A stretch of 64,000 nt of DNA, taken from assembly GCA_036626005.1 (NCBI GenBank), contig JAZKSP010000001.1, positions 1,344 to 65,343 on the forward strand. The letters run 5' to 3'. Below, piece by piece: positions 2,838-36,014 of the stretch (positions within the stretch are counted from its first letter, which is position 1; each line of letters begins with the position of its first letter). The stretch comes from Thermoplasmatota archaeon. Its GTDB lineage: Archaea > Thermoplasmatota > Thermoplasmata > Halarchaeoplasmatales > Halarchaeoplasmataceae. The position numbers and the translations under genes were made by a program. The notes below the pieces were generated by a model. That model did no database searches. It worked only from the letters and a program-made list of their open reading frames with translations, and was not told where the DNA came from.

Positions 2838-3890
2838 CTAAGGCAGTCTCTTGACACCCTCACTGATCAGTTCTATCAGATTCCTAACGTCTTTCCAGTC
2901 CGCACATTCTACCGTAGAGTGAGAATACTTGACCGGTACACCTATAGAAAGTGTCAGGCAGCCTGATTCCTGTAGGGCCATCCCGTCGGTCGTACCGCCG
3001 GTTACGCCGTATTGATACGGTATTCCAGCTTCCTCAGCTACCTCCTTGAAATGGTCGACCATCTTCGGAGAAGAGATAGCTCTAGTATCGACCATCCTCA
3101 ACACCGGACCTTCGCCGAACTTTATCGGTTTGTAAAATTCTTCCACCCCGGGAGCGTCGGAAGTAGTGTAGGTATCTAATGCGATGACATACTCTGGATC
3201 TCTGGTGTTAGCGACGACTTTTGCGCCTCTCAAACCTATCTCTTCCTGAACGCTCCATATCGAGGAAAGGTCGACCTCTAATTCCCTATCCTTCAATTTT
3301 TTAAGGACCTCAAGAAGAGCAAAACTTCCTATCCTGTTGTCGAGGCCTCTACCTGAAACGACTTGACCTTCTAATCTCCTTAGTTTTTTGTCGAAGGTTA
3401 TTGGATCTGGAACGTCTATACCCATCTCTTTCACTTCTTCAGCGGAGTCTGCGCCGATGTCGACATGAGTTTTTGTCCACGGAGTCACCTCGTCCTTGTC
3501 GTCTTCTTCAGTAGTCAGATGTGGTGGTCGATGTCCGATAACCCCGTTCACAGGACCTTCTTCGGTGTGTATCTTGACGTGCCTACCGGTCAATAGAGGA
3601 TCTAGAACTCCACCGATCTTTTTTATCCGGAGATATCCATCATCTTCGATGTTAGAGACCACCATCCCGATCTCATCCATGTGAGCGACCAAAGCTACTT
3701 CTGGTCCTTCATCTTCCTTCTCATAGATGAGGTTACCTATGTTGTCTTCCTCTATACTATCAGTATCTTCGACTTCCACATAGTCTGCAATAAGCCCTCT
3801 GATCTTATCTCTAACCGGTCCTTCGTATCCCGCAACTCCGGGAGCCTTCAAAACTTGCTCAAATATATCTAATCCTTCCAGTTTTTCCAT
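2838..3890 (-). CDS. M42-family metallo-aminopeptidase (TET/FrvX-like)
   Basis: 350-aa ORF resembling TET/FrvX/CelM aminopeptidases, including conserved HMDEIG and metal-ligand D/E/H motifs. Confidence 0.75.
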   Translation of the reverse strand: MEKLEGLDIFEQVLKAPGVAGYEGPVRDKIRGLIADYVEVEDTDSIEEDNIGNLIYEKEDEGPEVALVAHMDEIGMVVSNIEDDGYLRIKKIGGVLDPLLTGRHVKIHTEEGPVNGVIGHRPPHLTTEEDDKDEVTPWTKTHVDIGADSAEEVKEMGIDVPDPITFDKKLRRLEGQVVSGRGLDNRIGSFALLEVLKKLKDRELEVDLSSIWSVQEEIGLRGAKVVANTRDPEYVIALDTYTTSDAPGVEEFYKPIKFGEGPVLRMVDTRAISSPKMVDHFKEVAEEAGIPYQYGVTGGTTDGMALQESGCLTLSIGVPVKYSHSTVECADWKDVRNLIELISEGVKRLP

Positions 3891-5259: not shown

Positions 5260-6645
5260 ATGAAAGAATATGATTTGATTTCAATAGGAACCGGCTCAGC
5301 TATGAGCATTGTAACTCAGGCTTTAAACGAAGACCCAAATTTGGATATTGCTGTGATCGAAAACGAGAAACCTGGTGGTATATGCCTCACTAGAGGATGT
5401 ATTCCATCCAAATTACTTCTTTACCCCGCAGAAGTCGTCAATAGTATTAAGGAGGCAGATAGATTCGGTGTCGATGTAGATATCAACTCTATCGATTTTC
5501 AGCAAATAATGGAGAGAATGAGAGACCATGTTAATACACAAAGTGAAAGTATAGGTACTAATTTGAGAAACAGTACAGATCTTGACTTTTACGAAGATGA
5601 TGCTCAATTCGTAGACGATTATACCCTTAAAGTCGGGAATAAAAAAATCAAGGGGAAAAAAATAATACTAGGGACTGGATCACGACCCTCAATACCTCCT
5701 ATAGATAATCTTGAAGAAACTGGTTACTTAACTAGTAAAACATTTTTAGATATCAAGGAGCTTCCTGAAAGTATAGTGATCATAGGTGGAGGGTACATCG
5801 CTGCAGAGTATGGATACTTTCTAGCAATGATGGGATCCGATGTCACCATAATAGGTAGGAATACACAGTTCGTACCATCTGAAGAGCAGGAGATATCTGA
5901 AGTGTTGGAAAAGAAACTTTCTAGATACATGGATATCTATACAGGTTATGAAGTGAAAAAGACAAAGGAAAAGTCTGGTAACAAGTGGGTCCTCGCTAAA
6001 TCGGATAAAGATAAGATAGAAGTTAAAGGAGAAGAATTACTGATCGCGACAGGTAGACGATCAAACTCAGATATATTGAAACCGGAAAAAAGCGGGATCA
6101 AAACAGATGATAAAGGTTGGATAGAAGTCGATCAACATCTAAAAACATCTAAGGAAAATATATGGGCCTTAGGAGATGCGACGGGAGAACACATGTTCAA
6201 ACATGTTGCAAATTACGAAGCAAAAATAGTATATGAAAACGCGATCGAAGGAAGAGAGAGTACAGTGGATTATCATGCTGTGCCACATGCCGTATTCACC
6301 TATCCACAGGTGGCTTCAGTTGGGATGAAAGAAAAAGAGGCATCCAAGAAACACGATATACTGATAGGTTACTATCCTTTCGAAGACACGGCTAAAGGTT
6401 CTGCCATGGAGATAGAAGATTATCTCGTTAAAGTGATTGTAGATAGTGAAGATTACAGGATACTCGGAGCTCATATAGTAGGTCCCGAGGCTTCTGTCCT
6501 TCTGCAGGAGATAATAAACTTGATGTACACTAAAAACCAGACATTTTTACCGATATATAACGGGATGCACATACATCCTTCCTTGTCCGAAGTTGTTGAA
6601 AGAGCGTTCTCGAATCTTCACTCTCACGAACACGAACACCATTGA
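5260..6645 (+). CDS. lpdA: Dihydrolipoyl dehydrogenase (class I pyridine nucleotide-disulfide oxidoreductase)
   Basis: GxGxxG FAD site. Redox-active disulfide GGICLTRGCIPSK. C-terminal dimerisation domain with HPSLSE (His-Glu dyad). Divergently adjacent to gcvT. Confidence 0.75.
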   Translation: MKEYDLISIGTGSAMSIVTQALNEDPNLDIAVIENEKPGGICLTRGCIPSKLLLYPAEVVNSIKEADRFGVDVDINSIDFQQIMERMRDHVNTQSESIGTNLRNSTDLDFYEDDAQFVDDYTLKVGNKKIKGKKIILGTGSRPSIPPIDNLEETGYLTSKTFLDIKELPESIVIIGGGYIAAEYGYFLAMMGSDVTIIGRNTQFVPSEEQEISEVLEKKLSRYMDIYTGYEVKKTKEKSGNKWVLAKSDKDKIEVKGEELLIATGRRSNSDILKPEKSGIKTDDKGWIEVDQHLKTSKENIWALGDATGEHMFKHVANYEAKIVYENAIEGRESTVDYHAVPHAVFTYPQVASVGMKEKEASKKHDILIGYYPFEDTAKGSAMEIEDYLVKVIVDSEDYRILGAHIVGPEASVLLQEIINLMYTKNQTFLPIYNGMHIHPSLSEVVERAFSNLHSHEHEHH

Positions 6646-9864: not shown

Positions 9865-11112
9865 TTAAATTACATTGACCACTTCCTCGATCGAATCGAC
9901 TTTTTTAAATTCTGTCTTGCTGGATATCTCATTATAAAGCTTTAAAGCTCTATTTTGGTCTGTGAAATCTCGATCATGTATATTCTCTATATCGACAAGG
10001 ATCAGTTCCGTATCTTCAGTTATACCCTCTTTAACGGCCTCAAGATTTCTAATGTTTCCTTCGCCCACCGGAAAATCAGTCACCACAATGATATCTGCTT
10101 TCTTTATCAGTTCTATATTTTCTCTGTAGGAATCATAAGTGATCGATGAAAAGGGTGCTTCGGTCACGACTTCGATGTCCAAAAAGTCGGCTTTTTCAAG
10201 ATCAGAATCCATCACGTTCAGAACACCTGTGCTCACCTCAAACCCTTTTTCAACTAGGTCCTTGAGTAATGTACCAGTAGAACCCCCGCCACATATCACA
10301 TGGATTTTTTTTCCTCCTTTTTCGATTTTGATCTGTTTGTCTACAGGGGAGACATATAGACTGCCATCTTTTGGATGTTCGTGAACCTCGGCCTCGACAC
10401 CATAAACGGCTCTAAGATGAGTGTTTGTTAAAACTTCTTTAGGTCTTCCATGAGCATGTTTTCCCCCCTCTTCTAAAAGCAAGATTTTCTTGCAGTACCG
10501 AGCTGCTAGATTAAGATTGTGATGAACCGATATAACGGTGAGATTTTCTTTTTCGTTTTTCTTTTTCAACGTATCCATCACTTCTTTTTTATGTCCGATA
10601 TCGAGCTGAGAAGTTGCTTCGTCCAATAATAAAATATCTGGTTTTTGGGTCAAAGCTCTAGCTAAAACTACTCTCTGTAGTTCTCCTCCAGATAACTCCT
10701 TGACTGAACGGTCTTTGAATCTTAGAGTACTTGTGATATTCATAGCTTCCTCAGCTATCTCGATATCTTCTTTCCCTGGGCTTTCAAAACGCCCTAGATA
10801 AGGACTTCTGCCCATCAGAACTACATCTCGAACGGTGAACGGGAAGTTGATGAATGTATCTTGAGGAACAACAGAGACTTTCCTAGCGATCTCATTTCTA
10901 CTCATATTGTCGATATTCTTTTTATCGTACTTCACCTTTCCATCCCATATGGGGATCACTTTCGTCAAAGCTCTGATGAGAGTGCTTTTTCCAGATCCAT
11001 TAGGACCGATGATGCCAAGAAATGCTCCCTTCTCCACTTCGAAGGATATATCTTTCAGTATCTTTTCATCACCGTATCCGCTCACTAAACTACTCACTTT
11101 GAGTTCTACCAT
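9865..11112 (-). CDS. ABC transporter ATP-binding protein (FepC/BtuD-like) fused to a ~165-aa C-terminal Rossmann-like domain of unknown function
   Basis: Walker A GPNGSGKST, ABC signature LSGGELQRV, Walker B LLLDEATSQLD and an H-loop occupy the first ~250 aa. The extra C-terminal region (ICGGGSTGTLL...IIVVTDFPVG) is not part of canonical BtuD/FepC. Confidence 0.8.
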   Translation of the reverse strand: MVELKVSSLVSGYGDEKILKDISFEVEKGAFLGIIGPNGSGKSTLIRALTKVIPIWDGKVKYDKKNIDNMSRNEIARKVSVVPQDTFINFPFTVRDVVLMGRSPYLGRFESPGKEDIEIAEEAMNITSTLRFKDRSVKELSGGELQRVVLARALTQKPDILLLDEATSQLDIGHKKEVMDTLKKKNEKENLTVISVHHNLNLAARYCKKILLLEEGGKHAHGRPKEVLTNTHLRAVYGVEAEVHEHPKDGSLYVSPVDKQIKIEKGGKKIHVICGGGSTGTLLKDLVEKGFEVSTGVLNVMDSDLEKADFLDIEVVTEAPFSSITYDSYRENIELIKKADIIVVTDFPVGEGNIRNLEAVKEGITEDTELILVDIENIHDRDFTDQNRALKLYNEISSKTEFKKVDSIEEVVNVI

Positions 11113-23775: not shown

Positions 23776-25140
<1,365 letters not shown>

Positions 25141-26103: not shown

Positions 26104-28331
<2,228 letters not shown>

Positions 28332-28450: not shown

Positions 28451-28852
28451 CTAAATTGTGCCTTCATCTCCATAGACAGTAATCGGAATCGACCCAGAAT
28501 ACTCGCCGATTTCGACCTCTGAATGCACTTTCAACTGGAATAGTGCCATACATTTTTCTCCAACGTTCAGTGACCCTCCTAGATAATTCTCGGACATTGA
28601 ACGCCATCCATCAGAATCAATAACACCGTGCCCCACGTATATCTTGTGAAGGTATCTTTCTCCGGTGTTCTTTAACCAGAACCACTTATTTTTTTCTTCC
28701 CCGGGCCTGACAGGTCCAAAATTGATATTTTTTACTTCTCGATAACATTTTTCGTCTTCATAGACCGATAGTTTAAAATCGCTCTTTGAATTCTCTTCTG
28801 AAACCCCTCTAAATTCTTTTTTTATCTCCAATCTATCGACCCCATATATCAC
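28451..28852 (-). CDS. Hypothetical protein (beta-rich, no recognisable family)
   Basis: Clean 133-aa ORF in an otherwise empty intergenic space. No motif recognised. Confidence 0.3.
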   Translation of the reverse strand: MIYGVDRLEIKKEFRGVSEENSKSDFKLSVYEDEKCYREVKNINFGPVRPGEEKNKWFWLKNTGERYLHKIYVGHGVIDSDGWRSMSENYLGGSLNVGEKCMALFQLKVHSEVEIGEYSGSIPITVYGDEGTI

Positions 28853-29066
28853 TAGACAAGGTTGAAGAGATATTTCTTTGTTCCATTAATAACGTAGTCC
28901 TGATACTAAAAGTTTTGTGATAAATTATGATAAATTATGAAAAATTAAACACAATATGAATTATGCGTATATTAACCTCTATTTGAAGTTTATTTTCGTA
29001 CTTTGAAGTTTTTTTAATAACAGATTTTAAATAAAAAAACTAATTAGTAGGTAGTAGGTAGAAAAA

Positions 29067-29426
29067 ATGGAATTGGAATGCAAAAGTTGCGGATATGAGT
29101 GGGACTATCAAGGCGAGAGCGATTTTTACGCCACTTGTCCAAACTGCCATTACAAGGTGAAGATATCGGCTAAAGCTGAAGTCGTGAAACCTGATTTTGA
29201 GATCGACCGATTCAATGAGGAAGAAAACGTCCTTCTCAACGAATTGGCTGCCTGTCAAGGTCCGGAGGACTTTAAAAAGGTCTGTTCTAAGTACGAACAG
29301 CAGGAATTCAATGCGATGAAGAAGAAAATCAAAGATAAAGTCCAAAAGATGAGAGAAGACTTGAATAAATTCGAGAGAGCGGAAGACATTCTTGAAGGGT
29401 CCGATTGGCAGTATCCCGAGTTATAG
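29067..29426 (+). CDS. Zinc-ribbon protein, copy 1 of a three-gene tandem family ([16 protein letters not shown]...CPNCxYKVKI)
   Basis: Own RBS (ggtagaaaaaATG). CxxC...CPxC ribbon plus a K-rich helical tail. Paralogous over its full length with the next ORF. Confidence 0.5.
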   Translation: MELECKSCGYEWDYQGESDFYATCPNCHYKVKISAKAEVVKPDFEIDRFNEEENVLLNELAACQGPEDFKKVCSKYEQQEFNAMKKKIKDKVQKMREDLNKFERAEDILEGSDWQYPEL

Positions 29427-29445
29427 GTAATTTCCAGGTGATCGG

Positions 29446-29883
29446 ATGGAGCTGGAATGCAACAGTTGTGGATATGAATGGGATTACCAGGGCAAAAGCG
29501 ATTATTACGCAACTTGTCCGAACTGCCAATATAAAGTGAAAATAGAGGCGAATGCCGAAGTCGTCGAACCAGAAGGAAAAGAAGAGGAACCTGAAGGAGA
29601 TGTTAAGGCAGAATTTGGAATGCCGGCGAAGGCAGAAGTCGTCCCATCAGGAGCGGGAACTACTAGATTCAGTGAAAAGGAAGAGATGTTTTTAGAACAG
29701 ATCGCTGAAGTTGACGATTCCGATGAGATATATGAAATTTTTTCCACATATGACCAGGAAGAATTCAACACGCTCAGGAAAAAAGTAAAAGATAAAGCCA
29801 CTAGGCTTCGAAATGATCTGAAAAAATACGAGGAAATTGAAAATCTTTTAGAGGAAAAAGAATGGGAATATTCTGATCGATAA
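29446..29883 (+). CDS. Zinc-ribbon protein, copy 2 (paralog of 29067..29426 with an acidic insertion)
   Basis: RBS aggtga. N-terminal ribbon ~80% aa identical to copy 1. The C-terminal helix FNTLRKKVKDKATRLRNDLKKYEE parallels FNAMKKKIKDKVQKMREDLNKFE in copy 1. Confidence 0.5.
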   Translation: MELECNSCGYEWDYQGKSDYYATCPNCQYKVKIEANAEVVEPEGKEEEPEGDVKAEFGMPAKAEVVPSGAGTTRFSEKEEMFLEQIAEVDDSDEIYEIFSTYDQEEFNTLRKKVKDKATRLRNDLKKYEEIENLLEEKEWEYSDR

Positions 29884-29907
29884 ACTGAGATTTAAAAAGG
29901 TGTTAAA

Positions 29908-30492
29908 ATGGAATTAGAATGTGAAAATTGTGGATATGAATGGGATTATCAGGGCGAAGTTGAAGAGTACGCAGTATGCCCGGAATGTGATTATGAGATG
30001 GAGATACCGGCGGAAGCCGAAGTCATCGCACCCGAGAGAGATATAGAGAGTATTCTTGAACAATACTCTCAAGATCCGAGTTCTCTCATACCGATACTTC
30101 AGGAGACTCAGGAACAGTACGGTTATCTCCCTAGAGACGTCATCGAAAGCATAGCTGAATATTTAGAACTGCCTGTTAGCAAGATTTACGGGGTCGCTAC
30201 TTTTTATGCGCAGTTCAGGTTCGAACCCCAGGGCGAACATGTCGTTAGGATCTGCCACGGTACCGCCTGCCATGTTCAGGGGGCTGAAGGGATAACTGAT
30301 GCGGTCGAAGATACATTGGACATAGATACCGGAGAGACTACAGATGACGGGATTTTCACGTTGGAAAGAGTAGCCTGTCTAGGATGCTGCAGTCTAGCAC
30401 CAGTTATTATGGTCAACGATACTGCCCATGGGAACTTGACAAGAGAGAAAGCTAAGGAGGTCCTCGAAAAATACAGGGGGAATAACACGTGA
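29908..30492 (+). CDS. NuoE-like [2Fe-2S] thioredoxin-fold subunit with the N-terminal zinc-ribbon module (copy 3) fused
   Basis: N-terminus [16 protein letters not shown]...[10 protein letters not shown], followed by NuoE/HoxE motifs [14 protein letters not shown] and [16 protein letters not shown]. Confidence 0.75.
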
Positions 30493-32246
30493 GTTCTGAA
30501 AGGAGAATTAAAGTAGGATATGCTTCCTGCGGTATAGCAGCGGGCGCTAGCGAGATCTACGATGAGTTGATGGACCGATTGAAGGGAAAAGATGTTGATA
30601 CACGTGTGGACAAAGTTGGATGTATAGGGATGTGTCACAACGAACCCATAGTCGAGATAGACGATGAAGACGGAAGATACACTTATGGAAATCTTGAAGT
30701 TGAAGACGTTGAGAACCTTGTCGAAGATCATCTCGTCGAAAACGTCCCTTATGAAGATAAGCTTATAACCGGACCGGACGAAGAATATGATTATTTTTCC
30801 AATCAAAAGAAAGTTGTACTTAGAAACAGCGGAGAGATAGATCCCGAAAGTATAGAAGAATACATCGATACCGGCGGATACGAAGGTTTGAAGAAGGCCC
30901 TAGACATGGAATCCAAAGAGATAATAGATACCATAAAAGAAAGCGATCTTCGAGGAAGAGGCGGAGCCGGATTTCCTACAGGCGTTAAATGGCAGTTCGC
31001 TAAAGACGCTGACGGAGATGAAAAATACCTGATCTGTAACGCTGACGAAGGAGATCCAGGCGCTTTCATGGACCGTTCCGTTCTAGAGGGGGATCCTCAT
31101 GCTGTTTTGGAAGGTATGATAATCGGAGCTTACGCAACTGGAGCGAGTAAAGGTTACATATACTGCAGAGCTGAATATCCTGTAGCGTTAGAGAGACTTC
31201 AGATAGGTATAGAAAAAGCGAGAGAGAAAGGTTTCCTAGGTGAAGATATCCTAGGAAGTGGTTTTTCTTTCGATATTGAGATCAAAGAAGGCGCTGGGGC
31301 TTTCGTTTGCGGTGAAGAGACTGCTCTGATGCATTCGATAGAAGGAGAAAGAGGCATGCCCCGACCGAGACCCCCGTTCCCGGCTCAGGAAGGACTTTTC
31401 GATAAACCTACCAACATAAACAACGTAGAGACCTGGGCAAACGTTCCGTGGATATTGAGAAATGGAGCTGAAGAGTTCAGTTCTATAGGAACTGATGAAA
31501 GCGGTGGAACAAAAGTTTTCGCGCTTGCCGGAAAGGTGAAAAGAGGCGGTTTAGTCGAGGTCCCGATTGGAACGACTCTAAGAGAAGTTATATTCGATGT
31601 AGGCGCAGGGATCGAAGAAGACAAGGAGTTCAAGGCAGTCCAATTAGGCGGTCCTTCAGGTGGATGTCTCCCTAAAGAATATTTGGACACGCCGGTAGAT
31701 TACGAAACTTTAACCGATGCTGGGGCTATAATGGGTTCCGGTGGGATGGTAGTGATGAATGAAGATGACTGTATGGTCAATGTAGCTCAGTACTTCCTAG
31801 ATTTCACTCAGGAGGAATCCTGCGGTAAATGTACCTTCTGCAGAGTCGGTACAAAACGCCTACTAGAGATGTTGGATAGATTCTCCAAAGGAAAAGGCAG
31901 CTCTGAAGATATCGAAAAGTTGAAGGAGATGGCCGATAAGATAAATAAACACTCTCTCTGTGGACTCGGACAGACCGCCCCAAATCCAGTTTTGACCACT
32001 CTTAGATACTTTGAAGATGAGTACGAATCTCACCTGGAAGAACAGACCTGCGAAGCTGGTGTATGCAGGGACCTAATCACTTACACGATAATGGATAGCT
32101 GTATAAGTTGCGGTACCTGTGCGGAAGAGTGTCCATCTGATGCTATATCAGAGGGTGAAAACAAATATGTTATCGATCAAGAGACCTGTATCACATGTGG
32201 AGCGTGTGAAGAAGCCTGCCCCGTAGATGCAATCGAGGTGGAATAG
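30489..32246 (+). CDS. NuoF-like NADH-binding flavoprotein subunit with C-terminal 2x[4Fe-4S] ferredoxin domain (HndC/HoxF/StnB-like)
   Basis: FMN/NADH motifs [13 protein letters not shown]. 4Fe-4S cysteines [11 protein letters not shown]-terminal CxxCxxCxxxCP repeated twice. Confidence 0.85.
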
Positions 32247-35198
32247 ATGTCTGATAAGATCACTGTAACTATCGATGGAGAAGAATATGAAACTGAGCCT
32301 GGAAAGAAAGTTTTAGATGTATGCAGAGAGAACGATCTTTTCGTGCCTACACTCTGTGAGATCGAATATATCGAAGAGCCCTTTGGTGGATGTAGAGTTT
32401 GTCTTGTGGAGGCAACCACGGATAGAGGAACAGAAGTCACAACTTCCTGCGATACGCCGATACAGGATGGAATGGAGATAAAAACGGAAACGGAGGAAGT
32501 ATATGAGGGACGGAAGATGGCCCTTGAGCTTCTTTTGTCTGAACATACTGGGGATTGTGTAGCGCCATGCTCCTTCGAATGTCCCGCTAGTTTAGACGTT
32601 CAGGGTTATCTCGCGCATATTGCTAACGGAAGGCCGAGCGAGGCTGTCAAGCTAATAAAAGAGGAGACCCCTCTCGCTCTGAGTCTAGGGATGGCATGCT
32701 TCGCTCCGTGTGAAGATGAATGTAGGAGAGAATTGGTGGAAGATCCTATTGCTATAAGACAGCAGAAGATGTTTGCAGCGGAAGAGGACATAGAAGATCC
32801 TTGGACTCCAGAGATAGAAGAAGACACGGGGAAGACCGTTGGTGTTGTCGGCGGAGGCCCCGCAGGACTGACCGCAGCTTACTTCTTGAGACTCGAAGGG
32901 CACGATGTCCAGATATATGATATGATGCCGGAGCTCGGAGGCATGATGCGCTACGGTATCCCGGAATATCGACTACCTAATGATCTGCTCGACAAAGAGA
33001 TAGAATGGATACTCGACCTAGGTATCGAGGCCGAAACAGAAACTAAGCTCGGCGAAGACGTTTCACTTGAGGAACTGAGAGAAGAACATGATGCGGTGTT
33101 CATGGGCACCGGTGCATGGGACCCGTGGATGATACCGATAGACGGCATAGACTTGAGCGGTGTTATGGGCGGTATCGACTTCTTGATAGACTATAACTCT
33201 GGAAAAGACTTGGATCTCGGCGAGAAAGTAGTGGTTATAGGATGCGGAAATACAGCGATAGACGCGGCGAGAACGGCAAAGAGAATTGGAAAAGAAGTAA
33301 CTATAGCTTATCGAAGGAGCGAAGAACAAGCGCCTGCCCACCAAGATGAGATCGACGAAGCGAGAGAGGAAGGAGTAAATTTTGAATTCCTAGTGAGCCC
33401 GAAGAAAGTCTGCGGACCGGAAGACGAGGAATGTGTAGAAAAAGTCACTTGTTCTCCAGTAGAGCTAGGTGAACCGGATGAATCTGGACGTCCGAAGCCG
33501 ATAGAGATACCGGATGAAACAGTGGAGATCGAAAGTGACAGCGTAGTGCTTGCGATAGGTCAGCAGCCAGATGATGAACTTCTTGAAGACGAAGGACTTG
33601 AAGTAGAGGATTACACACTTGCTAAAAATTCTAAATTCCAGACCAATTATGAGGACGTCTTCACCGCTGGAGATGCGAATCTTGGTCCTTCATCGATAGT
33701 GGAATGTACTGGAATGGCTAGAGAAGCTGCATATGCTTTGAATGCATATCTTCAAGATAACTTAGAAGATTATGAAGTACCAAACGATTATCAGGACCCA
33801 TTCGGTTACGTTCATCAAGATGAAGTCACTGAAGAAGATCTTTGGGATTACAACAAAGAATTGAGAAGAGATATGCCGACTAGAAAGCCTAAAGAGAGAA
33901 TAAAAGATTTTGAGAGGATCGAACTAGGTTTTTCAACTGAAAAAGCGAGAGATGAAGCCGAGAGATGTTTAGAGTGCGGTTGTCTTGATCGCTTCGACTG
34001 TGAGTTGAGAGAGTACTCGGAAATGTTCGATGCTGAACAGAAAGCCTACGAAGGATTTAAATTTGAACGGGAAGAAGATGATTCTCATCCATATATACTC
34101 AGAGAGCCGCAGAAATGTATTCAGTGTGGTTCGTGTGTGCGAACGACCGAGAAGGTGCACGGTGAAGGAGCAGTTCAGTTTGCGAATAGAGGATTAGAAA
34201 CAGTTGTAGAGCCAGCTTTCGGTGATCCTTTAGGTGAGGTAGAGAGTAAACTGATTGGAGATTTAGCAGATGCTTGTCCTACGGGTGCATTTGAAGAGGT
34301 ACTTCAAGATAGAAAACCTGGTCCGCACAATACTGAGATCGCAGGCGAAACCGTCTGTTTAGAGTGTGGATTGACCTGTCCTGCTGAGGTACATGCGGTC
34401 AATGGAAGGCCCGTCATGATGAAACCGGCTGAAGATACAATCTATCAGGGACATCTCTGCGACATTGGAAAATTTGGAAGCTCTATCAATGCGCCAGATA
34501 ACGACACTGATTTTGAAGAGAGATTGTCTGAATTGAAGGAGATGATCCAAGCTAAAAAGATGGACATCATTCTAGGAAGCGCTACCACAATCGAAGAGGC
34601 GGAGAAGCTGAAAGAACTAGCGGACTATACTGAAGGGAATATTATTGCTCCGGTAGCGGATAAGAGATCAACCGCTACTGTAGACGATCTGAAGTCTGCT
34701 GAAAAATTATACGTCGATCCTTTAGTTTATGATATAGCCCCTATAATGAAGATGTTCGTCGAGAGTGCTAAGCAGAACGGTTCGGATATAGTTGCATCTT
34801 TAGAAGCTCTAGATGGTGGAATCGGAATAGTAACTCCAGCTGACGCAGGAGATTTAGATAACAGAATAGTCGTACAACCTGGTGCTAATTCCTACGGCTT
34901 GTCATGTTTAGATATCTCGGAAGGAGATGTTCAAAGTGATAATGTATTGGTTTATGGAGACAAAGACATACCGACCGAAAAGATCGAAGGTAAAAAAGTG
35001 ATACATCTCACTGGAGAAGAAAATGAGAAGGTCAAATCAGAACTATCGATACCGATACGCTCTTCTCTACAGAAACAGGGAACTATCAGGAATCTATTCG
35101 GTGAAGAGATGACTCTGACGCCAGTAGTTGAGACCTTTCTCCCGAAAAATCTAGATATTTTGGACAGTGTGATCGACCTGTATAGAAAACAGACCTAA
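32247..35198 (+). CDS. NuoG/HndD-like Fe-S subunit with an inserted GltD-like FAD/NAD(P) oxidoreductase domain (StnC/NfnB-fusion-like); no hydrogenase H-cluster or molybdopterin catalytic domain recognised
   Basis: aa 1-75 form a 2Fe-2S ferredoxin (CRVCLVE). aa ~90-480 are GltD-like (CVAPCSFECP, GVVGGGPAGL, VVIGCGNTAIDAA). aa ~520-720 carry NuoG-type clusters (CLECGC, CIQCGSCVRT, CLECGLTCP...C). The ~260-aa C-terminus is unknown. Confidence 0.75.
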   Translation: MSDKITVTIDGEEYETEPGKKVLDVCRENDLFVPTLCEIEYIEEPFGGCRVCLVEATTDRGTEVTTSCDTPIQDGMEIKTETEEVYEGRKMALELLLSEHTGDCVAPCSFECPASLDVQGYLAHIANGRPSEAVKLIKEETPLALSLGMACFAPCEDECRRELVEDPIAIRQQKMFAAEEDIEDPWTPEIEEDTGKTVGVVGGGPAGLTAAYFLRLEGHDVQIYDMMPELGGMMRYGIPEYRLPNDLLDKEIEWILDLGIEAETETKLGEDVSLEELREEHDAVFMGTGAWDPWMIPIDGIDLSGVMGGIDFLIDYNSGKDLDLGEKVVVIGCGNTAIDAARTAKRIGKEVTIAYRRSEEQAPAHQDEIDEAREEGVNFEFLVSPKKVCGPEDEECVEKVTCSPVELGEPDESGRPKPIEIPDETVEIESDSVVLAIGQQPDDELLEDEGLEVEDYTLAKNSKFQTNYEDVFTAGDANLGPSSIVECTGMAREAAYALNAYLQDNLEDYEVPNDYQDPFGYVHQDEVTEEDLWDYNKELRRDMPTRKPKERIKDFERIELGFSTEKARDEAERCLECGCLDRFDCELREYSEMFDAEQKAYEGFKFEREEDDSHPYILREPQKCIQCGSCVRTTEKVHGEGAVQFANRGLETVVEPAFGDPLGEVESKLIGDLADACPTGAFEEVLQDRKPGPHNTEIAGETVCLECGLTCPAEVHAVNGRPVMMKPAEDTIYQGHLCDIGKFGSSINAPDNDTDFEERLSELKEMIQAKKMDIILGSATTIEEAEKLKELADYTEGNIIAPVADKRSTATVDDLKSAEKLYVDPLVYDIAPIMKMFVESAKQNGSDIVASLEALDGGIGIVTPADAGDLDNRIVVQPGANSYGLSCLDISEGDVQSDNVLVYGDKDIPTEKIEGKKVIHLTGEENEKVKSELSIPIRSSLQKQGTIRNLFGEEMTLTPVVETFLPKNLDILDSVIDLYRKQT

Positions 35199-35295: not shown

Positions 35296-35772
35296 ATGTC
35301 CACCGTTGATGAATTTTACGAAAAGCTTTCGGATATCTATTCTAGAGACGACTTCAGAGAGAAGATAGAGGGGAAAAAGAAGGAATTCGATCACTTTTTC
35401 GATGAGGAAACATTAGCTCATATGATCGTAGCTGAGCATGGTAGGAATGAGAGCGCAATTAATGATATCGATCAAACAGAACCCGGTGATGAGGCTACAG
35501 TCCAGGGGAAAATAGTCGATCTAGGTACTCTAAGGACATTTGAAAACGATGATGGTCAGGGTAAAGTCAGGAACGTTCGTATCGATGACGGTACGGGGAC
35601 CATAAAGGTGGTTTTCTGGGATGAAGAGACTGATAGAGTGGAAGAAGAATTCGAGATAGGTAGTGAGATAAAAGTTGTCAATGGTTACGTTAAGGACAAA
35701 GGCTATGGTAAACAGATCTCCGCAGGAAGATGGGGCGAAATTCGTCTATTGGAAGAAGGCAAAAAGGATTAA
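35296..35772 (+). CDS. RPA-like single-stranded-DNA-binding protein (single OB-fold)
   Basis: VQGKIVDLGTLRTFENDDGQGKVRNVRIDDGTGTIKVVFWDEE matches the OB-fold pattern of archaeal RPA/SSB. Confidence 0.5.
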   Translation: MSTVDEFYEKLSDIYSRDDFREKIEGKKKEFDHFFDEETLAHMIVAEHGRNESAINDIDQTEPGDEATVQGKIVDLGTLRTFENDDGQGKVRNVRIDDGTGTIKVVFWDEETDRVEEEFEIGSEIKVVNGYVKDKGYGKQISAGRWGEIRLLEEGKKD

Positions 35773-35798: not shown

Positions 35799-36014
35799 AT
35801 GGTTGAAGAGGATGATAATGAAGGTTATATAGAAGAATTGATAGAGTGTCCATTTTGTGGCGGCTTCGTCCCAGACGAATTCGAATGTATTCTATGTGGT
35901 GAAGAGATATTGGATACTGATAAGGTGGGGAAGACTAAATTGGTTTGCTCAAGATGTGGAGCGGAAATAGAAGAGGAGACAGAAAGCTGCCCTGATTGTG
36001 GAGCATTGTTTTAG
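35799..36014 (+). CDS. Small double zinc-ribbon protein
   Basis: Four CxxC pairs (CPFCGG...CILCG...CSRCG...CPDCG) in 71 aa, immediately downstream of the RPA-like gene. Confidence 0.45.
   Translation: MVEEDDNEGYIEELIECPFCGGFVPDEFECILCGEEILDTDKVGKTKLVCSRCGAEIEEETESCPDCGALF

Follow-up and report, generated by a model that had tools for sequence, protein, structure and literature searches.

Results

Three adjacent genes share an N-terminal zinc-ribbon module

The stretch of DNA analysed here (64,000 nucleotides of contig JAZKSP010000001.1 from a Thermoplasmatota archaeon, hereafter the window) contains three consecutive genes on the forward strand that begin with the same putative zinc-ribbon module, the third of which encodes the NuoE-like subunit of a predicted electron-bifurcating transhydrogenase. 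The first two, c1 (29067–29426, 119 aa) and c2 (29446–29883, 145 aa), are open reading frame (ORF) calls for free-standing paralogous proteins. The third, c3 (29908–30492, 194 aa), is nfnC, whose product is BfuC/NuoE-like. The gaps between the genes measure 19 nt (c1–c2) and 24 nt (c2–c3), and c3 overlaps the following gene, nfnB, by 4 nt.

The module spans about 43 residues, has the form CxxC...CPxC and stands at the N-terminus of all three proteins, whose common start reads MELEC[11 protein letters not shown]...YA-x-CP-x-C-x-Y-x-x-x-I-x-A-x-AEV(V/I)-x-P. It consists of a ribbon (aa 1–34 in each protein; 29067–29168 in c1, 29446–29547 in c2 and 29908–30009 in c3) followed by a short segment, AKAEVVKP in c1 (aa 35–42, 29169–29192), ANAEVVEP in c2 (29548–29571) and AEAEVIAP in c3 (30010–30033). 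The c2 protein carries a further segment, AKAEVVP (29626–29646), and a second AxAxVV segment is present in every c2 orthologue. Beyond the module, c1 continues as a helical tail (aa ~47–119) to which the helical tail of c2 is homologous (38–39% identity, E 5e-19 to 7e-21), and c3 continues as a four-helix bundle and a thioredoxin-like [2Fe-2S] domain (aa 46–190). c2 is identical to a database protein (P0019, V5A76_00140) from a Thermoplasmatota metagenome-assembled genome (MAG).

Over residues 1–43 the protein identity is 81% for c1/c2 and 63% for both c1/c3 and c2/c3. When the module was searched against the 64-kb window with tblastn, the copies matched each other at E 2e-19 to 9e-25 and no fourth copy was found. 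At the nucleotide level the 129-nt module is 80% identical between c1 and c2, and 69% and 71% identical in the pairs with c3. Mismatches at codon positions 1/2/3 number 4/2/20 for c1–c2, and 13/5/22 and 14/5/18 for the pairs with c3; third positions hold 20 of the 26 changes in the first comparison and about half in the other two. The proportion of synonymous differences (pS) between copies is 0.58–0.80, near or at saturation, and the nonsynonymous divergence (dN) is 0.09–0.27. The original prediction for this locus had recognized the common N-terminal module of the three consecutive genes and the related K-rich helical tails of the first two, and both points stand. It had put nucleotide identity at ~75%, and its statement that the differences are mostly synonymous holds for c1–c2 and for only about half of the changes in the pairs with c3. 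It had also assigned a GGTG-type ribosome-binding site to each gene; such Shine-Dalgarno sequences precede c2 (AGGTGATC) and c3 (AGGTG), whereas the start of c1 is preceded by a repeat, TAGTAGGTAGTAGGTAG, instead.

The operon is predicted to encode an NfnABC-type enzyme

Residues 46–190 of c3 match the NuoE family (PF01257, E 3e-55), and the best match of this protein in the PDB is NfnC (9n5u_C, E 5.5e-58), with an alignment confined to query residues 51–188. Directly downstream lie nfnB (30489–32246, + strand), encoding a BfuB/NuoF-like protein of 585 aa with PF01512, PF10589 and two Fer4 domains, and nfnA (32247–35198, + strand), encoding a protein of 983 aa that joins a NuoG-like part to a GltD-like subunit for flavin adenine dinucleotide (FAD) and reduced nicotinamide adenine dinucleotide phosphate (NADPH), with Fer2_4, Fer4_20, Pyr_redox_2 and Fer4_Nqo3 domains. 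Their best PDB matches are 9n5u_B (E 9e-250, residues 2–584) and 9n5u_A (E 3e-205), respectively, and residues 7–80 at the N-terminus of NfnB also give a weak PF01257 match. For all three subunits the next-best PDB matches are NfnABC of Caldicellulosiruptor saccharolyticus and StnABC of Sporomusa ovata. The [2Fe-2S] ligands of NfnC (C116, C121, C157 and C161) are invariant in 68 sequences, and the domains that distinguish BfuC, BfuB and NfnA/StnC in the NfnABC/StnABC family are all found in the window subunits. For BfuB these are an FMN/NADH site, a thioredoxin-like domain at the N-terminus and a ferredoxin-like 2x[4Fe-4S] domain at the C-terminus. Because the three subunits best match NfnABC of Thermococcus sibiricus, we assign the operon as nfnCBA of a Bfu-family (NfnABC/Stn-type) transhydrogenase, for which electron-bifurcating activity is predicted. 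The proposal that the third copy of the module heads the NuoE-like subunit of the oxidoreductase encoded downstream is thereby upheld, and the subunit can be named more precisely as NfnC.

The T. sibiricus enzyme (PDB 9n5u/9n5v, PMC12018979) has the same domain architecture as the window in all three subunits, including a NuoF-like NfnB with a ferredoxin-like C-terminus and an NfnA that is NuoG-like plus GltD-like. Its NfnC, of 154 aa, has a four-helix bundle at the N-terminus and, at the C-terminus, a thioredoxin-like [2Fe-2S] domain whose movement gates bifurcation and opens the ferredoxin site (PMC12018979). The enzyme differs from that of the window in three ways: its NfnC lacks an N-terminal ribbon (the aligned part of c3 starts at residue 51), its description mentions no small ribbon proteins, and c1 and c2 are added upstream in the window operon. 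StnABC of S. ovata (PDB 8oh5; PMC10482914, PMC7483475) and NfnABC of C. saccharolyticus (PDB 9bov; PMC11829005) have the enzyme family and the reaction type in common with the window, but they are bacterial and have a longer NfnA/StnC (1172–1178 aa), through which Stn forms a tetramer of heterotrimers; the papers searched on these enzymes describe neither a ribbon on the NuoE-like subunit nor ribbon accessory proteins. Among the PDB matches of c3, no solved NuoE-family chain covers the ribbon, and a search of the literature found no description of a zinc ribbon on a NuoE-type subunit.

The arrangement is conserved in related species

Conservation was scanned with one genome per GTDB species. 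The order orph133(−), c1, c2, ribbon-nfnC, nfnB, nfnA, in which orph133 is a divergently transcribed neighbour described below, is kept in 12 other species of Thermoplasmata/Thermoplasmatota, all represented by MAGs from the Great Salt Lake and other hypersaline samples. The gaps within the operon, of 12–29 nt, are conserved in the 13 genomes (the 12 species plus the window). The c1 orthologues of the 12 species are 56–92% identical, and mean cross-species ribbon identity is 87% for c1, 73% for c2 and 72% for c3. The paralogues cluster by orthology, not by species. Nucleotide identity between c1 and c2 is in slight excess within species (0.79) relative to between species (0.75); strong concerted evolution between the copies was not seen.

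The dN/dS ratios (nonsynonymous to synonymous divergence) between orthologues are 0.01–0.10 for the ribbons, 0.11–0.17 for the tails, 0.17–0.40 for the c2 linker and 0.04–0.05 for the NfnC domain. Taken gene by gene, they are 0.01–0.02 for the c1 ribbon where dS could be estimated (pN, the nonsynonymous proportion, 0–0.054 in five pairs) and 0.13–0.15 for the c1 tail, and 0.04–0.05, 0.17–0.40 and 0.11–0.17 for the ribbon, linker and tail of c2. These low ratios identify c1 and c2 as real, constrained genes. A collapse or expansion in assembly was rejected, since the arrangement recurs in 13 independent assemblies and the synonymous sites at which the copies differ are saturated. The duplication is older than the divergence of the clade, and purifying selection on it is strong; the earlier view of an old duplication under selection, as opposed to an artefact, is supported by the low dN/dS, the saturated pS and the order kept in the 12 MAG species.

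The free copies and the NfnC ribbon change together

A search with c3 revealed that the ribbon–NfnC fusion is more widespread in halophilic Thermoplasmatota than c1 and c2 are. The fused NfnC proteins are of two kinds: 12 have the A-x-A-x-V-[VI] segment after the ribbon, and 11 lack it and have divergent ribbons. One of these 11 (P0045) has a shortened ribbon. The c3 copies of the 12 species loci and of the window all possess the segment, and all come from operons with c1 and c2. In six of six contexts examined for the segment-less kind, the gene for glutamate dehydrogenase (GDH) lies directly upstream of nfnC, with no c1, c2 or orph133. At a matched NfnC-domain identity of 70–80%, ribbon identity is 0.70 with the segment versus 0.39 without it.

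In the NfnB tree, lineages with the three ribbon genes ('triple') and lineages with the ribbon on NfnC only ('single') are intermixed. The triple locus L009 and the single locus L056 group together at 100% bootstrap and also share rearranged synteny, and the triple lineages L011 and L012 branch deepest. This intermixing implies that c1/c2 and the type of NfnC ribbon changed together more than once, through loss or through exchange of cassettes; as dS is saturated everywhere, loss with relaxed constraint and cassette exchange are inseparable by dS. What looks like an intermediate state was detected on a short contig (L181), where the ORF immediately preceding a segment-less ribbon-NfnC (MEWDSNRRGYEWHCQGIRVSEYQLSNFRRVPANATGVA, positions 100–234) has none of the four cysteines left but retains the order ME / GYEW-QG / EY / VPAxAxxVA, with the relic 'VPANATGVA'; it would be a pseudogenised free ribbon copy. 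Taken together, these comparisons indicate that the three units of ribbon plus segment evolve as a coupled set.

Two other candidates for free copies, ORFs of 59 aa upstream of nfnC in two related loci, were discarded, as they are not ribbons and are mutually unrelated.

Predicted structure and charge of the ribbon proteins

AlphaFold2 models of c1 and c3 (predicted local distance difference test, pLDDT, of 80 and 84, respectively) both contain a four-strand ribbon at residues 2–32. In c1 it is followed by helices at 51–61, 66–74 and 78–111, the last of which is long and K-rich, and in c3 it is flexibly tethered to a normal NfnC fold by a low-confidence stretch at 36–41. This stretch is the conserved AxAEVV segment and the only part of the c1 and c3 monomer models with a pLDDT below 50; such disorder in the monomer is expected of a strand that would become ordered on binding a partner. 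The helical tail of c1 and c2, of ~70 aa, in which a K/R-rich helix is conserved, is lineage-specific: neither the 289 proteins collected nor the first search for homologues yielded a relative of it from outside the clade. The idea that c1 and c2 are truncated NfnC paralogues (ribbon plus four-helix bundle) was rejected, as hhalign of the tail against the NfnC profile gave a probability of 0.4%.

The ribbons differ in charge, with a mean net value of −1.7 for c1, −4.5 for c2 and −8.2 for c3. Position 30 of the ribbon is K in 13 of 13 c1 proteins and E in 12 of 13 c3 proteins, and the NfnC ribbon of the window has 12 acidic and no basic residues. This pattern fits complementary, not equivalent, surfaces.

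The upstream DNA, the orphan gene and the neighbourhood

The promoter-proximal element of c1 (29026–29066, + strand) comprises a TATA-like sequence, TTTAAATA (29026–29033), and the 17-nt repeat TAGTAGGTAGTAGGTAG (29045–29061), which ends 5 nt before the ATG of c1. The element has TAG stops in each of the three frames. The 45 nt that precede the c1 start codon are nearly invariant across the 12 species, with synonymous sites at or near saturation in most comparisons. With the usual archaeal spacing, the GGTAG repeat is predicted to lie between the TATA box and the transcription start, the region where repressors bind.

In the 716 kb of sequence collected, searched on both strands (1.4 Mb of strand), GGTAG-N0-3-GGTAG has 19 matches. 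For 17 of them, spread over three lineages, a ribbon gene starts within 60 nt downstream. The genes concerned are 13 copies of c1, two Bathyarchaeia ribbon-NuoE genes (L013, repeat at 9972–9988, and L015, repeat at 5686–5702, of the form (GGTA)4G) and an unrelated stand-alone ribbon gene of a Thermoplasmata MAG (L032, repeat at 3182–3201); in the last three the repeat again falls between a TATA-like box and the start of the ribbon gene. Crenarchaeal ribbon copies in insertion sequences (IS; see below) have GGT-rich runs at the corresponding position, and nfnC genes without c1 and c2 have an ordinary TGGAGGTT Shine-Dalgarno sequence and no repeat. An Rfam search of 28700–30100 gave no match at E ≤ 1. 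In a metagenome scan for a 14-mer of the repeat, 0 of 125 sites among the matches listed had a downstream ribbon gene; 25 loci were microsatellites, and since most matches in this sample were of that kind or due to chance, the count weighs neither for nor against the link.

The gene orph133 (28451–28852, − strand) is clade-specific, encodes 126–133 aa and is divergent from c1, which it adjoins in 12 of 12 related species. It is absent from loci without c1 and c2 and is the only other gene whose presence tracks them; this co-occurrence makes it a candidate for a link to the ribbons. Its homologues are confined to the clade, no family in Pfam, NCBIfam or PHROG matches it, and its sequence (…INFGPVRPGEEKNKWFWLKNTGE…) looks like an Ig-like beta-sandwich. 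The intergenic region between orph133 and c1 contains three direct 10-bp repeats, TGATAAATTA TGATAAATTA TGAAAAATTA (28918–28947), which are recognisable in the alignment of most of the 12 related species.

An NfnSL/NfnAB-type pair on the − strand (26104–28331), made up of a 282-aa DHOD-B-like FAD/[2Fe-2S] subunit and a 470-aa GltD-like subunit, adjoins the NfnABC-type operon, and two non-homologous types of transhydrogenase are thus neighbours in the window. At the equivalent position L012 and all single-ribbon loci lack the pair, and the L011 contig ends just upstream of orph133. GDH (23806–25140) is encoded upstream of the nfn cluster, and an OB-fold protein and a 71-aa multi-CxxC protein (35296–35772 and 35799–36014) downstream of it; these genes flank the cluster in lineages with and without c1 and c2. 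The block that is present or absent between GDH and nfnC is nfnSL-orph133-c1-c2.

The ribbon family beyond this locus

A 35-column profile made from c1-, c2- and c3-type ribbons was searched exhaustively against 1.84 billion cluster representatives, of which 1862 matched at E ≤ 1e-3 and 64 at E ≤ 1e-10. Among the best 149 matches, 54 are stand-alone ribbons (≤70 aa); two ribbons occur in 26 proteins, and between three and five in several others. Many stand-alone members are only 36–60 aa long, and in some family proteins a coiled coil separates two ribbons. 'Arrays' of 500–860 aa among the matches lack the Trp signature and were set aside as another repeat family. A GTDB scan found members in Bathyarchaeia, Hadarchaeota, Thermoproteota, Halobacteriales, Methanoperedens and others. 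The window ribbons are members of this widespread archaeal CxxCG[YH]xWxY...CPxC family, which is defined here and has no curated model: single ribbons stay below the cutoff of every Pfam and NCBIfam model, and the recurrent weak matches (HypA zinc site, Zn_ribbon_4 and DUF5817) are generic.

In Bathyarchaeia the ribbon is fused to NuoE and followed by NuoF-like and HoxU-like genes, and another fusion places it on a nucleotidyltransferase. In the halophilic Thermoplasmatota, two 'unfused' database NuoE/NfnC entries of 147 and 164 aa (L182 1942–2520, P0053; and P0032) were found to have miscalled starts, their ORFs extending upstream to take in the ribbon (from a GTG start in L182); such starts hide ribbons, and annotation therefore undercounts ribbon–NuoE fusions. 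The possibility, raised with the original prediction, that the module is a common stand-alone family without a link to NuoE is right about its abundance only, as there is no dedicated Pfam model and the NuoE association recurs both in related Thermoplasmatota without free copies and in Bathyarchaeia. Judged by these matches, the ribbon is a common and promiscuous module and its NuoE link is not unique to the window.

In Thermoproteota a basic ribbon ORF of ~40 aa (VKLKCPRCGYVWDYKGKKQYYATCPNCMRKVNIAKYKVE) lies directly upstream of a TnpB-like gene (PF07282, E 6e-17; for example L037 9990–11271 and L023 10001–11283). One MAG, Caldisphaera sp. F8S.bin.6, holds this unit at least 11 times at 93–96% nucleotide identity, often at contig ends (L021, L025, L026, L031, L033–L037, L040 and L041), and so many near-identical copies in one genome mark the TnpB-adjacent ribbon ORF as a component of an IS element. 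Thermoplasmata have proteins of 320–400 aa in which a DnaA-like P-loop domain (PHROG 5484, E 1e-10) is combined with one or two tandem ribbons (L044 9290–10483; L045–L049), probably mobile-element replication proteins.

Two known groups resemble the free ribbons. The prophage protein DUF1660 (PF07874) has an N-terminal CxxC...CxxC ribbon of a length similar to that of c1 and c2, but its model excludes their helical tail and the window locus has no phage context. It scores 18.3 bits on c1 (E 0.0035), below its cutoff of 21.4, and does not match c2; 7 of 21 c1/c2 family members match it at E ≤ 0.01 (best 1.1e-05), and the NCBI name 'DUF1660 family phage protein' on two c1 orthologues reflects a borderline match. 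The c2 protein also matches T4_baseplate (PF12322) at 32.4 bits (cutoff 24.5), a model matched by 3 of the 21 family members over the K/E-rich linker and tail, and PHROG 'baseplate hub' at E 7e-5; these matches are probably compositional. The second group comprises the haloarchaeal C(P)XCG zinc-finger micro-proteins, such as HVO_0758, and Brz of Halobacterium (PMC10716476, PMC11241148, PMC6562870, PMC2253796), which like the ribbon family are small, archaeal and built on one Cys4 knuckle pair. By contrast, c1 and c2 have 119 and 145 aa with an added helical tail, the Pfam models of the micro-proteins stay below cutoff on the ribbons (HVO_0758, E 0.41; HVO_B0008_N, E 0.06), and none of the micro-proteins has been reported as a paralogue of an enzyme-subunit domain.

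Discussion

The reading that we favour, with a probability of roughly 35%, is that c1 and c2 are non-catalytic partners of the transhydrogenase, which would serve as adaptors or as assembly or regulatory subunits and would dock either on the ribbon of NfnC or on a protein that NfnC also binds, perhaps orph133. The ribbon with its segment would then be a recognition module, and c1 and c2 would bind the ribbon-tagged N-terminus of NfnC through ribbon–ribbon contacts and through strand addition by the AxAEVVxP segment. Alternatively, c1/c2 and NfnC might share one partner, for which orph133 is a candidate. Docking would bring the K-rich helical domains to the enzyme beside NfnC, with its mobile, gating C-terminal domain, and assembly, ferredoxin access or stability could be tuned as a result. 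The coupling of the three copies is what was observed; from it we infer the mechanism. Competition with the ribbon on the NuoE-like subunit, or escort of it, as originally suggested for the free ribbons, would agree with the data. Indirect support comes from the presence of the segment in NfnC only alongside c1 and c2, from the much stronger constraint on the NfnC ribbon there and from the degenerated NfnC ribbon in the lineage with a pseudogenised free copy; these results do not separate competition from escort. Neither a ribbon on NfnC, nor two co-evolving free paralogues with a private tail, nor a linked promoter repeat was found in solved structures, curated families or the available literature.

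Several observations weigh against docking. A new docking site on NfnB or NfnA might be visible as a difference in size, and neither protein shows one. The ribbon family is found elsewhere mainly in nucleic-acid contexts (TnpB/IS, DnaA-like proteins, nucleotidyltransferases) and the conserved GGTAG repeat travels with ribbon genes in three lineages, both of which fit a regulator at least as well. Furthermore, the gap in ribbon conservation between the two kinds of NfnC could partly reflect the exchange of two old cassette types, not relaxed constraint: between L009 and L056, NfnB is 94% identical and the NfnC domain only 82%.

The nearest competitor, to which we give about one chance in four, is that c1 and c2 are small zinc-ribbon nucleic-acid-binding regulators of the nfn operon, and perhaps of orph133, acting via the GGTAG element. 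The acidic NfnC ribbon would then be a paralogue that titrates or antagonises them, coupling expression to the level or assembly of NfnC. The near-invariance of the 17-nt repeat against near-saturated synonymous sites argues for such a role, as do the concentration of GGTAG sites just upstream of ribbon genes, L013, L015 and L032 included, and the plain Shine-Dalgarno sequence of nfnC in lineages without c1 and c2. The conserved K/R-rich tail helix, which stands out in an otherwise acidic proteome, the family members beside TnpB and on DnaA-like proteins, and a weak match to a Com-like PHROG point the same way. The proposed regulator may be likened to Com of phage Mu and to Brz, a small zinc-finger regulator whose gene lies directly upstream of its target gene (PMC2253796). 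Against it, the NfnC ribbon of the window, with its wholly acidic charge, is unlikely to bind nucleic acid itself, regulation alone leaves a ribbon on an enzyme subunit in two phyla unexplained, and the position of the transcription start is a predicted one.

A rather speculative possibility is a self-referential circuit in which c1 and c2 act on the GGTAG promoter and the ribbon and segment of NfnC bind or titrate them as a sensor. Expression of the transhydrogenase would in that case depend on its own gating subunit, either on how much of it is present or on its state of assembly or redox state, and the Bathyarchaeia cassette of repeat and ribbon-NuoE would be an independent version of the same logic.

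We consider it similarly improbable that the three copies share only their ancestry, a promiscuous ribbon having been copied twice beside nfnC to give proteins that are merely co-transcribed with the enzyme and unrelated to Nfn in function. The size of the family, its many unrelated architectures, its proteins with two to five tandem ribbons and a tail without detectable relatives outside the clade would all agree with this. However, order and position are strictly conserved in 13 genomes, the AxAEV(V/I)xP segment is common to the three copies and co-occurs with c1 and c2, conservation of the NfnC ribbon differs with the presence of c1 and c2, and in L181 the free copy and the NfnC ribbon have decayed together.

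Rubredoxins have a first knuckle of the form CxxCGYxY(D/N), a knuckle spacing of about 29 residues and a Gly in the second knuckle. That the Cys4 site instead binds iron, as in rubredoxin or the short-spaced FeS4 domain of rubrerythrin, which would make it a redox centre, with an additional point of electron entry or exit on NfnC and with c1 and c2 as small electron carriers, is very improbable: the first knuckle (CxxCGYxW(D/N)Y, with CPxC as the second), a loop-truncated rubredoxin among weak Foldseek matches and the setting in an iron-sulfur flavoenzyme speak for it, but the knuckles are 15 residues apart and the second lacks the Gly, no rubredoxin Pfam model reaches its cutoff (RUBY_RBDX, E 0.78 on c3; Zn_ribbon_LapB, PF18073, 'Rubredoxin metal binding domain', E 0.04 on a stand-alone homologue), and a redox role is implausible for the same module in IS elements, replication proteins and nucleotidyltransferases.

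Bfu-type enzymes, among them NfnABC/Stn and the HydABC hydrogenases, hold a central place in the energy economy of anaerobes, and their mechanism needs movement of the NuoE-like subunit. For annotation, the practical consequence is that several NuoE proteins annotated as 'unfused' in these genomes carry a ribbon that a miscalled start conceals. The locus also offers a first lead to function for the archaeal zinc-ribbon micro-proteins, a very large family for which no curated model exists. A conserved extra domain on the NuoE-like subunit, together with two co-evolving small proteins that share it, would give this class of enzymes a further level of control or assembly, one that is absent from all solved structures.

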